DNA of 64,000 bases, from NCBI RefSeq assembly GCF_029227855.1, contig NZ_CP074356.1, one strand, 5' to 3'. The DNA is from Escherichia coli (GTDB lineage Bacteria > Pseudomonadota > Gammaproteobacteria > Enterobacterales > Enterobacteriaceae). The notes beneath the pieces are model-generated. The model made no database searches, was not told where the DNA came from, and was given only the letters and a program-made list of their open reading frames with translations. The stretch's first letter is position 1; every line of letters begins with the position of its first letter. The translations under genes and the position numbers were made by a program. This document shows positions 8,800 to 59,413 of the stretch, piece by piece.

Positions 8800-10019
8800 A
8801 AATACTGGTCTACGGCATTAACTACTCGCCGGAGTTAACCGGCATCGGCAAATACACCGGAGAGATGGTGGAATGGCTTGCGGCACAAGGTCATGAGGTG
8901 CGGGTCATAACCGCACCGCCTTACTACCCGCAGTGGCAGGTGGGCGAGAACTATTCCGCCTGGCGCTACAAACGAGAAGAGGGGGCCGCCACGGTGTGGC
9001 GCTGCCCGCTGTACGTGCCAAAACAGCCGAGCACCCTGAAACGCTTGTTGCATCTCGGCAGTTTTGCCGTCAGCAGTTTTTTCCCGTTGATGGCGCAACG
9101 TCGCTGGAAGCCGGATCGCATTATTGGCGTGGTGCCAACGCTGTTTTGCACGCCGGGAATGCGCCTGCTGGCGAAACTCTCTGGCGCGCGTACCGTGCTG
9201 CATATTCAGGATTACGAAGTGGACGCCATGCTGGGGCTGGGCCTTGCCGGAAAAGGCAAAGGCGGCAAAGTGGCACAGCTGGCGACGGCGTTCGAACGTA
9301 GCGGACTGCATAACGTCGATAACGTCTCCACGATTTCGCGCTCGATGATGAATAAAGCCATCGAAAAAGGCGTGGCGGCGGAAAACGTCATCTTCTTCCC
9401 CAACTGGTCGGAAATCGCCCGTTTTCAATATGTTGCAGACGCCGATGTTGATGCCCTTCGTAACCAGCTTGGCCTGCCGGATAACAAAAAAATCATTCTT
9501 TACTCCGGCAATATTGGTGAAAAGCAGGGGCTGGAAAACGTTATTGAAGCTGCCGATCACCTGCGCGATGAACCGCTGATTTTTGCCATTGTCGGGCAGG
9601 GCGGCGGCAAAGCGCGGCTGGAAAAAATGGCGCAGCAGCGCGGACTGCGCAACATGCAATTTTTTCCGCTGCAATCGTATGACGCTTTACCCGCACTGCT
9701 GAAGATGGGCGATTGCCATCTGGTGGTGCAAAAACGCGGCGCGGCAGATGCCGTATTGCCGTCGAAACTGACCAATATTCTGGCGGTAGGCGGTAACGCG
9801 GTGATTACCGCAGAAGCCCACACCGAACTGGGGCAGCTTTGCGAAACCTTTCCGGGCATTGCGGTTTGCGTAGAGCCGGAATCGGTCGAGGCGCTGGTGG
9901 CGGGGATCCGTCAGGCGCTCCTGCTGCCCAAACACAACACGGTGGCATGTGAATATGCCGAACGCACGCTCGATAAAGAGAACGTGTTACGTCAATTTAT
10001 AAATGATATTCGGGGATAA
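8796..10019 (+). CDS. wcaI: Colanic acid biosynthesis glycosyltransferase WcaI (GT4)
   Basis: 407 aa ORF; GT4 architecture; conserved position. Confidence 0.92.
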
Positions 10020-10021
10020 TT

Positions 10022-11458
10022 ATGGCGCAGTCGAAACTCTATCCAGTTGTGATGGCAGGTGGCTCCGGTAGCCGCTTATGGCCGCTTTCCCGCGTACTTT
10101 ACCCCAAGCAGTTTTTATGCCTGAAAGGCGATCTCACCATGCTGCAAACCACCATCTGCCGCCTGAACGGCGTGGAGTGCGAAAGCCCGGTGGTGATTTG
10201 CAATGAGCAGCACCGCTTTATTGTCGCGGAACAGCTGCGTCAACTGAACAAACTCACCGAGAATATTATTCTCGAACCGGCAGGGCGTAACACTGCACCT
10301 GCCATTGCACTGGCGGCGCTGGCGGCAAAACGTCATAGCCCGGAGAGCGACCCGTTAATGCTGGTGCTGGCGGCGGATCATGTGATTGCCGATGAAGACG
10401 CGTTCCGTGCCGCCGTGCGTAATGCCATGCCGTATGCCGAAGCGGGCAAGCTGGTGACCTTTGGCATTGTGCCGGATCTACCAGAAACCGGTTATGGCTA
10501 TATTCGTCGCGGTGAAGTGTCTGCGGGTGAGCAGGATACGGTGGCCTTTGAAGTGGCGCAGTTTGTCGAAAAACCGAATCTGGAAACCGCTCAGGCCTAT
10601 GTGGCAAGCGGCGAATATTACTGGAACAGCGGTATGTTTCTGTTCCGCGCCGGACGCTATCTCGAAGAACTGAAAAAATATCGCCCGGATATTCTCGACG
10701 CCTGTGAAAAAGCGATGAGCGCCGTCGATCCGGATCTCGATTTTATTCGTGTGAATGAAGACGCGTTTCTGGCGTGCCCGGAAGAGTCGGTGGATTACGC
10801 GGTCATGGAACGTACGGCAGATGCTGTTGTGGTGCCGATGGATGCGGGCTGGAGCGATGTTGGTTCCTGGTCCTCTTTATGGGAAATCAGCGCCCACACC
10901 GCCGAGGGCAACGTTTGCCACGGCGATGTGATTAATCATAAAACTGAAAACAGCTATGTGTACGCCGAATCTGGCCTGGTCACCACCGTCGGGGTGAAAG
11001 ATTTGGTGGTAGTGCAGACCAAAGATGCGGTGCTGATTGCCGACCGTAACGCGGTACAGGATGTGAAAAAAGTGGTCGAGCAGATCAAAGCCGACGGTCG
11101 CCATGAGCATCGGGTGCATCGCGAAGTGTATCGTCCGTGGGGCAAATATGACTCTATTGATGCGGGCGACCGCTACCAGGTGAAACGCATCACCGTGAAA
11201 CCGGGCGAAGGCTTGTCAGTACAGATGCACCATCACCGCGCGGAACACTGGGTAGTGGTCGCGGGAACGGCAAAAGTCACTATTGACGGTGATATCAAAC
11301 TGCTTGGTGAAAACGAGTCCATTTATATTCCGCTGGGGGCGACGCACTGCCTGGAAAACCCGGGGAAAATTCCGCTCGATTTAATTGAAGTGCGCTCCGG
11401 CTCTTATCTCGAAGAGGATGATGTGGTGCGCTTCGCGGATCGCTACGGACGGGTGTAG
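10022..11458 (+). CDS. manC: Mannose-1-phosphate guanylyltransferase
   Basis: 478 aa ORF; nucleotidyltransferase N-terminus [14 protein letters not shown] and C-terminal cupin domain. Confidence 0.95.
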
Positions 11459-14379: not shown

Positions 14380-15858
14380 ATGAGCTTACGTGAAAAAACC
14401 ATCACCGGCGCGAAGTGGTCGGCGATTGCCACGGTGATCATCATCGGCCTCGGGTTGGTGCAGATGACCGTGCTGGCGCGGATTATCGACAACCACCAGT
14501 TCGGCCTGCTTACCGTGTCTCTGGTGATTATCGCGCTGGCAGATACGCTTTCTGACTTCGGTATCGCTAACTCGATTATTCAGCGAAAAGAAATCAGCCA
14601 CCTTGAACTCACCACGTTGTACTGGTTGAACGTCGGGCTGGGGCTTGTGGTGTGCGTGGCGGTGTTTTTGTTGAGTGATGCCATTGGCGACATGCTGAAT
14701 AACCCGGACCTGGCACCGTTGATTAAAACATTGTCGCTGGCGTTTGTGGTGATCCCCCACGGGCAGCAGTTCCGCGCGTTGATGCAAAAAGAGCTGGAGT
14801 TCAACAAAATTGGCATGATCGAAACCAGCGCGGTGCTGGCGGGCTTCACTTTTACTGTGGTTAGCGCCCATTTCTGGCCGCTGGCAATGACTGCGATCCT
14901 CGGTTATCTGGTCAATAGTGCGGTAAGAACGCTGCTGTTTGGCTACTTTGGCCGCAAAATTTATCGCCCCGGTCTGCACTTCTCGCTGGCGTCGGTAGCA
15001 CCGAACTTACATTTTGGTGCCTGGCTGACGGCGGACAGCATCATCAACTATCTCAACACCAACCTTTCAACGCTGGTGCTGGCGCGTATTCTCGGCGCGG
15101 GCGTGGCAGGGGGATACAACCTGGCGTACAACGTGGCCATTGTGCCGCCGATGAAGCTGAACCCAATCATCACCCGCGTGTTGTTTCCGGCATTTGCCAA
15201 AATTCAGGACGACACCGAAAAGCTGCGCGTCAACTTCTACAAGCTGCTGTCGGTGGTGGGGATTATCAACTTTCCGGCGCTGCTGGGGCTGATGGTGGTG
15301 TCGAATAACTTTGTACCGCTGGTCTTTGGTGAGAAGTGGAACAGCATTATTCCGGTGCTGCAATTGCTGTGTGTGGTGGGTCTGCTGCGTTCCGTGGGTA
15401 ACCCGATTGGTTCGCTGCTGATGGCTAAAGCGCGGGTCGATATCAGCTTTAAATTCAACGTATTCAAAACCTTTCTGTTTATTCCGGCGATTGTTATAGG
15501 TGGGCAGATGGCGGGCGCAATCGGCGTCACGCTCGGCTTCCTGCTGGTGCAGATTATCAACACCATTCTGAGCTATTTCGTGATGATTAAACCGGTTCTT
15601 GGTTCCAGTTATCGCCAGTACATCCTGAGTTTATGGCTGCCGTTTTATCTCTCGCTGCCGACGCTGGTGGTCAGTTATGCGCTGGGCATTGTGCTGAAAG
15701 GGCAACTGGCGCTGGGGATGCTGCTGGCGGTGCAAATAGCCGCGGGCGTGCTGGCGTTTGTGGTGATGATTGTGCTGTCGCGCCATCCGCTGGTGGTGGA
15801 GGTGAAGCGTCAGTTTTGTCGCAGCGAAAAAATGAAAATGCTTTTACGGGCGGGGTGA
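14380..15858 (+). CDS. wzxC: Colanic acid repeat-unit flippase WzxC
   Basis: 492 aa polytopic membrane protein; position after wcaJ. Confidence 0.92.
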   Translation: MSLREKTITGAKWSAIATVIIIGLGLVQMTVLARIIDNHQFGLLTVSLVIIALADTLSDFGIANSIIQRKEISHLELTTLYWLNVGLGLVVCVAVFLLSDAIGDMLNNPDLAPLIKTLSLAFVVIPHGQQFRALMQKELEFNKIGMIETSAVLAGFTFTVVSAHFWPLAMTAILGYLVNSAVRTLLFGYFGRKIYRPGLHFSLASVAPNLHFGAWLTADSIINYLNTNLSTLVLARILGAGVAGGYNLAYNVAIVPPMKLNPIITRVLFPAFAKIQDDTEKLRVNFYKLLSVVGIINFPALLGLMVVSNNFVPLVFGEKWNSIIPVLQLLCVVGLLRSVGNPIGSLLMAKARVDISFKFNVFKTFLFIPAIVIGGQMAGAIGVTLGFLLVQIINTILSYFVMIKPVLGSSYRQYILSLWLPFYLSLPTLVVSYALGIVLKGQLALGMLLAVQIAAGVLAFVVMIVLSRHPLVVEVKRQFCRSEKMKMLLRAG

Positions 15859-51794: not shown

Positions 51795-52145
51795 TCAGGT
51801 CCGCGTAATGGGGCAGGCGGTAAAGCGCATCATTTCACCCAGCGTACGGGTAACCTGGCTAAGTGCATATTCAATGGCAGAAACATCACCAGTCAGCACT
51901 ACGGCACCGGTAAAACGATCAAGAAAACCGATCTCTACAGCGCCTGATTTTGTGGCGATATCACATGCGATGATAGATGCTTCGCTGGGGGTAATTGTCA
52001 GAATGCCAATAGCAGAAACGGTGTCTGGTAAACCCAATTTCTTAAACAGATCCTTCCCTGGATTGGCGATGACATGTGCCAGCGTGACCTGCTTACCAGG
52101 GACATATTCCTGAATCATCCGTTCAGTTGTGTGCTGAGTTGTCAT
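51795..52145 (-). CDS. pduU: PduU, BMC shell protein (circularly permuted BMC domain)
   Basis: 116 aa from [32 protein letters not shown]; near-identical to recalled Salmonella PduU. Confidence 0.9.
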
Positions 52146-52699
52146 TATCCCTCCACCATCTGACGCCACATGGCTTCATGTGGACGGGCAATCACCGACC
52201 GATAGACCAACAAACCTTTTTCTCCCGCACGCTCGCTGGCGACAGAGACCGCGTTATTAACATCTGAAATATCGCCAGCAACCACCATGTAGCATTTACC
52301 GCCAATGCCAAAAGCCATATGCACGCGAACAAGAATGACATTCGCAGCTTTGACAGCACAATCGGCAGCGTCAATGCAGGCGGCGACACTCCAGGTTTCG
52401 ACTACGCCGACAGCCCGGTGCTGTTCAACTTGGTTCAGTCCGCTGGTTGCAGAAAGGAGGCTGGGATGAATATTCGGCAGGACAAGACTGTCGACCAGCA
52501 TTTCACCAGCAAGGGAAGCACCGCTGTTGATGGCCTGTTGCACCGCGCCCACATCGCCACCGAGCATCAGCAGAAATTTTCCGGGGCATAGCGTTTTGCT
52601 GACCAGTAACTCAACGTTGGCGCTTTTCAGCATGGCGTCGCCGGTTTCCATCCCTTTCGCGATACTGCTAAGTTCTAAAATACCTACCGCTTTCGACAT
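52145..52699 (-). CDS. pduT: PduT, tandem-BMC-domain shell protein
   Basis: 184 aa with two BMC domains; [29 protein letters not shown]. Confidence 0.9.
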
Positions 52700-57844: not shown

Positions 57845-58336
57845 TTACTCCTGCCTAATTAACTGAATATTTCGGGTAATTGCCGCTTCACGAGCCAGTG
57901 CGGTCACACAACATTTCCGCTGTAACACCAGTATTCCCGAGCTTAACTGTGCGATATCGGCATAACTTAAAAGTCGATCACGATGAAGGTAGATCGGTTG
58001 CCCTTGTTCGTCGCACCAGCTTAGCGGTAGACGGGCGAGAGTCTTCAATTCAATGGCGTTCAGGAAATGACGCTGCAACGACAATTGAATGTGCATTCCC
58101 CAGGCTAACGCTTCGTGTATCTGGATTGCTGCTCGATCTGACGTTTCGTTCTCCGCAAGTTGTCGCAGCAGCGGCAGATCGACATATCGGATTTGTAATG
58201 ACGCATACTGATGAACGCTCTCTTGAACGCTGGCGTCTCGCAGTTGAAAAACAGTCAGCACGAGTGCTTTTCTCGCACGTTGTTTAAGGCGAAAAACCAC
58301 CTCGTCAACAATACGTTGCATCAGCATGTTATTCAT
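57845..58336 (-). CDS. pduM: PduM, microcompartment structural protein
   Basis: 163 aa; position between pduL and pduN; length matches recalled Salmonella PduM. Confidence 0.8.
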   Translation of the reverse strand: MNNMLMQRIVDEVVFRLKQRARKALVLTVFQLRDASVQESVHQYASLQIRYVDLPLLRQLAENETSDRAAIQIHEALAWGMHIQLSLQRHFLNAIELKTLARLPLSWCDEQGQPIYLHRDRLLSYADIAQLSSGILVLQRKCCVTALAREAAITRNIQLIRQE

Positions 58337-58965
58337 GGCACTGACACCAGTGTGGCAAAAACGTCAGGGCTATCAGCGCCTGCGGCGTTGGCCTCATCGG
58401 TATCAATATGCATTTCAAGACGCATATCCGGAGAGACGCGAACAGCGACGTTTTCGAATATCAGTCGTCGCTCACCACCTTCAATGGCAACCGCCACTTT
58501 ATCGCCATGCGTAACGCCATAAATCAGGGCATCCAGCGGAGACATATGAATATGCCGTTGCGCGACAATGACGCCAGATGTGATCTCCAGTTCCGCAAAT
58601 GGGCTTATCAAACGAATCCCCGGAGTGCCGCTGAGATCGCCTGACATGCGTAGCGGGGCGGTGATCCCTAACGTTCTGGCGTCCGTCCGGGAAATTTCCA
58701 CCTGGCTTGCATTGCGTAGCGGCCCCAACAAGCGAACGTTGTGCAATTTGCCTTTTGGTCCCTCCAGCGTAACAACCTGTTCAGCAGCGAATTGGCCAGG
58801 TTGCATTAACGGCTTTTTCTCGCTAATCGGTTGTTCAGGAAAAAGACGCAAATAATCCGCTGTTGAAAGATGAATATGGCGACTGGAAACGCCCAGTGGG
58901 ATAGGGCGCTCGCGCATCTCATCCAGAATCTGGCTCACTGTTTCCTGCAGGGTTTGTTTATCCAC
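58333..58965 (-). CDS. pduL: PduL, phosphate propanoyltransferase
   Basis: 210 aa; N-terminal MDKQTLQETVSQILDEM amphipathic peptide followed by PduL/EutD-type domain. Confidence 0.9.
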   Translation of the reverse strand: MDKQTLQETVSQILDEMRERPIPLGVSSRHIHLSTADYLRLFPEQPISEKKPLMQPGQFAAEQVVTLEGPKGKLHNVRLLGPLRNASQVEISRTDARTLGITAPLRMSGDLSGTPGIRLISPFAELEITSGVIVAQRHIHMSPLDALIYGVTHGDKVAVAIEGGERRLIFENVAVRVSPDMRLEMHIDTDEANAAGADSPDVFATLVSVP

Positions 58966-58967
58966 TG

Positions 58968-59390
58968 CTACTCCCCTCGCTTATTGGCGTACAGGCAAAG
59001 TGAGCGGGGCTCACCTTTTTGCCGCTGACATGCCGGGTCAAGACACAAATTACAACTGATAATCTCTGAGGTGACGGTTGTTGCTGGTGTTTTGCTTGTT
59101 TCAACCGTCACGGTCAATGCTTCAATTGTGTGGGGCAGAATGCCGTCTCCCGGGCGGGCAATCACTTTGTGTGCGACAAGGCCATTTCGCTGTCCGGCGA
59201 AACTGGCTCCCGTCGCGATCGCCGCATTAACCGAGGCGACGTCACCGGTGATTTTGATGAGCGTCCAGCCTGAGCCATTGGTCTTCTCAAGGCCAACCAG
59301 CGTGATGGACGCGGCTTTTGCCATAGCGTCTGCGCAACTGATGGCGAGAGCCAGACCACTGACTTCAAGTAATCCCAGTGATTGCTTCAC
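58968..59390 (-). CDS. pduK: PduK, BMC shell protein with Cys-rich C-terminal extension
   Basis: 140 aa; N-terminal BMC domain MKQSLGLLEVSGLALAISCADAMAKAA; C-terminal CNLCLDPAC...C. Confidence 0.88.
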   Translation of the reverse strand: MKQSLGLLEVSGLALAISCADAMAKAASITLVGLEKTNGSGWTLIKITGDVASVNAAIATGASFAGQRNGLVAHKVIARPGDGILPHTIEALTVTVETSKTPATTVTSEIISCNLCLDPACQRQKGEPRSLCLYANKRGE

Positions 59391-59413
59391 GCTGTGCTCC
59401 TTAGCGAATGGGG

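Follow-up and report, generated by a model that had tools for sequence, protein, structure and literature searches.

The window, a stretch of 64,000 nucleotides from an Escherichia coli chromosome, carries a complete pduABCDEGHJKLMNOPQSTUV operon on its minus strand. Within it, pduK lies between pduJ and pduL in the local gene order pduH-pduJ-pduK-pduL-pduM, which is also that of the RefSeq record; the PduT gene of this operon is found at 52145-52699. The coding sequence of pduK (58968-59390, minus strand) starts with GTG and encodes 140 amino acids with the terminal sequence EIISCNLCLDPACQRQKGEPRSLCLYANKRGE, followed by a TAG stop, as judged from the ORF translation, the same CDS in RefSeq and homologues. 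The RefSeq CDS comprises the same 423 nt (WP_000814161.1) and is 100% identical in E. coli strain NRZ14408, to which the pduJ-pduL stretch of the window also shows 100% identity, and 641 of 5,426 complete E. coli genomes carry this same pdu locus. Direct reading of the sequence led to a Shine-Dalgarno sequence AAGGAG (59397-59402, minus strand) located 6 nt upstream of the GTG, and the frame contains no ATG from the pduJ stop (59416-59414) to this start codon. At the 3' end, the TAG stop (58970-58968) is separated by a 2-nt spacer from the GTG of pduL (58965-58963, minus strand), and the Shine-Dalgarno sequence of pduL, GAGGGGAG (58971-58978, minus strand), consists of codons from the very end of pduK (R138-G139-E140), as read from the sequence. 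The conserved downstream neighbour pduL (58333-58965, minus strand) encodes the phosphate propanoyltransferase (Pfam PTAC, E = 1.1e-70).

Architecture of PduK and position of its four cysteines

Pfam analysis of the translated protein gave a single, N-terminal BMC domain (PF00936, residues 4-80, 59151-59381, minus strand; E = 5.4e-22), modelled by AlphaFold with a pLDDT of 93-98 and a beta-alpha-beta-beta-alpha-beta pattern, and no match for residues 81-140. Similarly, sequence matches in the PDB (PduA, PduT, CcmK, CsoS1) were restricted to residues 1-92. Homologues in Escherichia, Citrobacter and Salmonella are 71-99% identical to the protein of the window. Because of the single N-terminal BMC domain, the pduJ-pduK-pduL position and 71-73% identity at 100% query coverage to Salmonella enterica proteins (P0029, P0044, P0047), we assign the protein as PduK, a minor BMC-H shell protein of the propanediol-utilisation microcompartment. 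In RefSeq it is named only 'BMC domain-containing protein' (WP_000814161.1), an annotation gap, and a search of NCBIfam retrieved no PduK model, the best matches being sub-threshold and belonging to other BMC-H families.

The BMC domain is followed by a flexible linker of 32 residues, PGDGILPHTIEALTVTVETSKTPATTVTSEIIS (residues 81-112, 59055-59150, minus strand; AlphaFold pLDDT 57-74). Counted from residue 86 to the first cysteine (C1), this linker has 27 amino acids and a net charge of -2 and is thereby unusually short and near neutral, as the same stretch spans 0-203 amino acids across the PduK family, with a median of 88 and a median net charge of -14. Family linkers are rich in E/A/P/S/T/D, mostly acidic and variable in length; those of some Bacillota relatives reach about 200 acidic residues. 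The linker leads to a four-cysteine module at residues 113-134 (58989-59054, minus strand), C113-N-L-C116-L-D-P-A-C121-Q-R-Q-K-G-E-P-R-S-L-C132-L-Y134, with the spacing CX2CX4CX10C, as established from directly read codons, the alignment and the AlphaFold model. The cysteine codons (minus strand) lie at 59054-52 (C113), 59045-43 (C116), 59030-28 (C121) and 58997-95 (C132), and the tetracysteine motif CNLCLDPACQRQKGEPRSLC (residues 113-132) spans 58995-59054 from C113 to C132. The original prediction had described a tail with the motif CNLCLDPACQ...C beyond the BMC domain of PduK, and this motif is exact in the translation. The range 58968-59045 given for it translates to CLDPACQRQKGEPRSLCLYANKRGE plus stop and therefore does hold C116, C121 and C132 as well as the stop codon (58970-58968), but it begins 9 nt short on the 5' side and omits C113.

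From a cysteine frequency of 1.4% in long ORFs, about 0.005 matches to the exact spacing were expected by chance in the six-frame translation of the window and two were observed. The sole other match, at 15359-15418 (plus strand), lies out of frame in an ORF for a 492-aa multi-pass membrane protein (14380-15858) and was discarded as an artefact. For the pduK motif itself, the question of a chance origin is irrelevant because the cysteines are conserved.

Conservation and distribution of the module

The check that accompanied the original prediction, cysteine conservation among PduK orthologues, was run and had a clear outcome, with four cysteines at fixed spacing kept in all genuine homologues examined. 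In the homologue counts, whose sequences were selected via the motif so that tail-less PduK orthologues fall outside the sample, all four cysteines were found at fixed spacing in 120 of 120 close homologues (the best 120 of 497 from a full-length search). These sequences from Escherichia, Shigella, Citrobacter, Salmonella and others carry CNLCLDPxCxRQKGEPRxxC, and the stretch from the end of the BMC domain to C1 varies widely in length among them. In addition, a profile of the tail only (37 columns) was run against 1.84 billion cluster representatives and led to 270 clusters at E<=1e-3, of which about 147 of the best 150 keep the four cysteines with identical spacing. Their consensus is C-N-[LIM]-C-x-D-P-x-C-x-R-x-[KR]-G-[EQD]-[PL]-[RKH]-x-x-C-[ILM]-H-[YHF], and its position was without exception the very C-terminal end of the protein. 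Three matches to the profile (P0129, P0137, P0200) were false positives from unrelated Cys-rich repeat proteins, and P0121 (53 aa, motif duplicated in tandem) is probably an artefact of assembly or gene calling. When 144 sequences were aligned, no columns of the protein other than C113, C116, C121, R123, G126 and C132 were invariant, and N114, D118, P119, K125 and a histidine at position 134 were kept in at least 90%; a conserved basic residue (R/K/H) is also found at position 129.

Circularity was checked with a degenerate DNA pattern in which C1 to G14 were specified and C4 and the next histidine were not, applied to one genome per species. At least 120 loci were obtained. Among the matches listed, C4 was present in 115 of 115 distinct sequences and the following histidine in 110 of 115; C1-C3 were fixed by the pattern itself, and C4 and the histidine lay outside it. 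The same sequences have a proline directly after C3 in 71 of 115 cases. Within the motif, third codon positions were near saturation and first and second positions fixed, indicating that purifying selection acts on the protein level.

The window differs from the family at position 134, where a TAC codon (58989-58991, minus strand) encodes tyrosine instead of the histidine found in about 96% of the family (110/115 species-genome sequences). Among the 641 complete E. coli genomes with a pdu locus, at least 263 have TAC and at least 233 have CAC (His), so that the Tyr134 allele occurs in about 40% of pdu-carrying E. coli, and the PduK of E. fergusonii also has Tyr at this position. As the tyrosine allele is common in E. 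coli and present in E. fergusonii, His134 appears not to be an indispensable ligand, at least in Escherichia, which fits the four cysteines being sufficient. Alternatively, the module might be under somewhat relaxed constraint in Escherichia, where a weakened module would be tolerated, and such a relaxation would also fit the short, uncharged PduK linker.

Of the 144 aligned sequences, 130 could be judged for their architecture (the remaining 14 are fragments of 62-150 residues), and all 130 combine an N-terminal BMC domain with the module at the extreme C-terminus. On non-BMC proteins the module was not found, except for the likely chimera P0122 (351 aa), in which a phage-like N-terminal region precedes a Salmonella-type PduK linker and tail, probably an artefact of assembly or gene calling. 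About 82 of 120 genomes listed belong to the Bacillota, with Clostridia, Negativicutes, Bacilli (including Listeria, Enterococcus and Loigolactobacillus), Halanaerobium, Thermoanaerobacterales and Tissierellia, and 36 of 120 to the Proteobacteria, almost all of them Gammaproteobacteria (Enterobacterales, Vibrio, Aeromonas, Tolumonas). Clostridium magnum, C. thailandense, Geosporobacter ferrireducens and a Bacillaceae isolate possess two Cys-tailed BMC-H genes each, situated in separate compartment loci (paired loci L032/L033, L053/L054, L088/L089 and L094/L095). A divergent pdu locus was observed in E. coli strain 48 from deer (L128:1276-1752). At the nucleotide level it is 83% identical across pduJ and a portion of pduK, and its PduK tail reads CNLCLDPACRRQKGEPHSQCLHSGKRGEK, which suggests a separate acquisition.

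Among the matches listed from other species, 79 of 88 evaluable loci had a gene for a PduL homologue no further than 900 nt past the motif, genes for a B12-dependent diol dehydratase or its reactivase were located upstream in 38 of 44, and PduS downstream in 22 of 28. Six loci have no B12 enzyme upstream (L062, L044, L045, L095, L097, L104). In L062:6050-10244, from a Tepidibacter MAG, the genes immediately ahead of the Cys-tailed BMC-H gene encode a glycyl-radical enzyme and its radical-SAM activase. Given this glycyl-radical context and the five further loci that have no diol dehydratase upstream, the occurrence of the module extends beyond pdu loci of the B12 type. PduK homologues have been described as rare in glycyl-radical loci (PMC6325248), and the occurrence in L062 extends this remark. 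Two metagenome contigs with a proteobacterial pdu locus (L003/L004, gene at 10001-10747) have kept the Cys-tailed PduK, and PduS and PduT are absent; here the gene order is PduQ, then PduU, PduV and acetate kinase. For P0214, P0246 and P0190, the contigs were too short for the type of locus to be assigned. Since the module is kept in loci devoid of PduS and PduT and in a glycyl-radical locus, its role would be general to such compartments and not tied to the PduS/PduT redox pair.

Predicted fold and comparison with known systems

A monomer of PduK was modelled by AlphaFold2 with the family alignment. The BMC domain reached pLDDT values of 93-98, residues 81-110 had values of 57-74, and residues 111-130 were again at 93-95. 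When the tail was modelled alone, its mean pLDDT was 82.5, with about 90 across the motif. Apart from one three-residue turn, the predicted module is devoid of helices and strands. Such a compact and confidently predicted fold without regular secondary structure is as expected for a metal-organised knot, and the same look is known from small Cys4 knuckles and ribbons; rubredoxin knuckles, zinc ribbons and CCHC zinc knuckles share with the PduK module a CX2C pair and two more cysteines within about 20 residues.

Searches for described relatives of the module gave no Pfam, NCBIfam or PDB match. With eight diverse tails, no metal-binding, Fe-S or zinc-finger family was obtained from Pfam at E<=10, the match to WCCH (E = 0.27) being meaningless. 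No PDB entry covers the PduK tail according to tail-profile and sequence comparison with solved structures, a 14-residue match of the profile to CFAP141 (E = 0.16) being spurious, and fold searches with the AlphaFold model of PduK led to no match. Of the features that define Fe-S proteins, a conserved cysteine ligand set is thus present and a match to a described Fe-S domain family or structure absent. Nor does the module qualify as a CCHC zinc knuckle, as its spacing is CX2CX4CX10C and not CX2CX4HX4C and as it has no match to the zf-CCHC profile.

PduK from Salmonella enterica, Citrobacter freundii and Klebsiella pneumoniae shares the pduJ-pduK-pduL position, the domain order and the CNLCLDPxCxRQKGEPRxxC motif with the E. 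coli protein, and Salmonella and Citrobacter PduK are 66-73% identical to it overall. With 140 amino acids compared to 147-160, E. coli PduK is shorter than these proteins, its linker is short and nearly uncharged, and it has Tyr for His two residues after the last cysteine. Like PduK, PduT and GrpU are BMC-family shell proteins of propanediol-type compartments for which iron-sulfur chemistry is relevant. For both PduT and GrpU an Fe-S cluster has been shown experimentally. In PduT it is located in the central pore with one cysteine ligand per subunit, whereas the four cysteines of PduK all come from a 20-residue stretch of a single chain, in a tethered appendage situated far from the pore. 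In PMC6325248, GrpU is mentioned only among accessory FeS proteins. EutK and CmcE belong to the same class as PduK, with a BMC domain, a flexible region and a small folded C-terminal module (PMC12058022). The module of EutK, however, is a nucleic-acid-binding fold of the helix-turn-helix type (PF16365) and not a Cys knot, and the PduK tail has no sequence similarity to it.

Possible functions of the four-cysteine module

The Cys motif of PduK was reportedly described as a putative Fe-S site by Crowley and colleagues in 2010. Later papers likewise refer to it as putative Fe-S site (PMC12058022; PMC6325248, Ferlez 2019; PMC3836489, Sargent 2013), and a passage in one of them calls iron binding 'partly demonstrated' for Salmonella PduK, crediting Crowley 2010 (PMC12058022). 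[quoted passage not shown] PduK is present in purified compartments (PMC6109187, PMC3836489). Upon deletion of pduK, compartments are well formed and growth is near wild type, and the compartments are confined to the poles (Yang et al., 2022, PMC9132943) in polar, nucleoid-excluded clusters (PMC9132943). It was also proposed that a flexible C-terminal extension on the concave, outward-facing side of PduK contacts cellular elements (Yang et al., 2022, PMC9132943). Publications thus already cover the Cys motif as well as the hypotheses on an Fe-S site and on positioning. To these our analysis adds the breadth and strictness of the conservation, the occurrence in a glycyl-radical locus and in loci without PduS and PduT, the finding that no family model or structure describes the tail, and the His/Tyr polymorphism in E. 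coli. That the cysteine spacing suggests a metal or Fe-S site, as first noted, is supported as far as sequence goes by the invariant cysteines, the predicted compact knot and the published designation.

We lean towards the interpretation that the four cysteines form a metal centre within a single chain and that the module is a flexibly tethered knob of a minor shell hexamer, displayed on its cytosolic side and serving as a docking and spacing handle by which compartments are dispersed. PduK would then be tripartite, with a BMC domain for insertion into the shell, a disordered tether and a C-terminal knob of ~25 residues, in which C113, C116, C121 and C132 of one chain hold the metal. Among possible metals, published data give the best support to iron, possibly in the form of an Fe-S cluster. 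Since the C-termini of canonical BMC-H proteins are situated on the concave, cytosol-facing side, the knob would most likely be displayed outside the compartment, with up to six knobs per hexamer. Stabilised by its metal, the knob might serve for docking and, in combination with a tether that is usually acidic, might hold propanediol compartments apart so that they do not clump at the poles. As the tether is short and not acidic in E. coli, a role as charged spacer is weak in this species. We infer that the metal site lies within one PduK chain and that the dispersal phenotype is due to the knob and to neither the tether nor the BMC domain. Architecture, cysteine invariance, purifying selection and predicted fold were observed here, and the partly demonstrated iron binding, the outward orientation and the deletion phenotype are taken from the papers. 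Loss of PduK alters the location of the compartments and not their formation, which is not known for any other Pdu shell protein, and the conserved Cys knob is an obvious candidate for the contact point in compartment positioning. If it is indeed a metal-dependent handle, it would be a target for studying the spacing and inheritance of catabolic microcompartments and an external attachment point for engineering.

A different function, which we regard as unlikely, would be that of a redox-active Fe-S cluster, which passes electrons or delivers or repairs clusters at or across the shell, together with PduT, a [4Fe-4S] protein of the pore, and the Fe-S flavoprotein PduS, or in glycyl-radical loci with the radical-SAM activase. 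The published descriptions as Fe-S motif and the iron binding partly shown, in the passages concerned (PMC12058022, PMC6325248, PMC3836489), are in line with such a cluster, as is the PduK-PduT contact listed among the experimentally characterised Pdu interactions (PMC4315436). The presence of PduS downstream in 22 of 28 evaluable loci among the matches listed, the position of the gene in L062 directly after a glycyl-radical activase with Fe-S domains, and the proline after C3 in 71 of 115 sequences, which recalls the Cys-Pro of ferredoxins, point in the same direction. However, L003/L004 keep the Cys tail without PduS or PduT, the CX2CX4CX10C spacing matches no Fe-S family model, deletion of pduK alters position and not growth (PMC9132943), and a long floppy external tether would be an odd design for a defined electron path.

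An extension of the docking interpretation, which we consider still less likely than a redox cluster and put forward as speculation, is that the knob is a metal-dependent (possibly iron- or redox-dependent) outward docking site by which both PDU and glycyl-radical propanediol compartments are positioned via a cytosolic partner. If true, this would be a knob-based positioning system unrelated to the carboxysome McdAB, and the His/Tyr polymorphism in E. coli would mark its functional variation.

The spacing CX2CX4 is that of the first three ligands in retroviral-type zinc knuckles. As the first three PduK ligands share it, which is a lead and not a test, one may also think of a zinc knuckle with a structural metal that would bind nucleic acid, a cytoskeletal protein or a partition protein and anchor the compartments to the nucleoid, by analogy with the DNA-binding-type C-terminal domain of EutK. 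R123, K125 and R/K/H129 are conserved, clusters formed without PduK are polar and nucleoid-excluded (PMC9132943), and PduK is placed with EutK among the BMC-H proteins whose C-terminal extensions are long (PMC12058022), all of which would suit an anchor of this kind. Nevertheless, we rate it as very improbable, since no zf-CCHC or other zinc-finger match was found at E<=10, the last ligand is 10 and not 4 residues away and is Cys and not His, the module plus following residues is only weakly basic across the family (median +2, range -6 to +9), and the published metal evidence is for iron.

Finally, a constraint at the nucleotide level, by which the pduL ribosome-binding site and translational coupling of pduK and pduL would explain the C-terminal conservation, could be argued from the pduL Shine-Dalgarno sequence within the last pduK codons, the pduL start 2 nt past the pduK stop and pduL being the next gene in 79 of 88 loci (matches listed), but it deserves next to no credence and is ruled out as cause of the motif conservation by the codon-position analysis (first and second positions fixed, third near saturation), as the overlap is limited to the three final codons of pduK and lies past the motif, and as the distance from motif to pduL varies in the Bacillota while the motif is unchanged. 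The pduL ribosome-binding site may add to the conservation of the final K-R-G-E(A) residues in the Enterobacterales.
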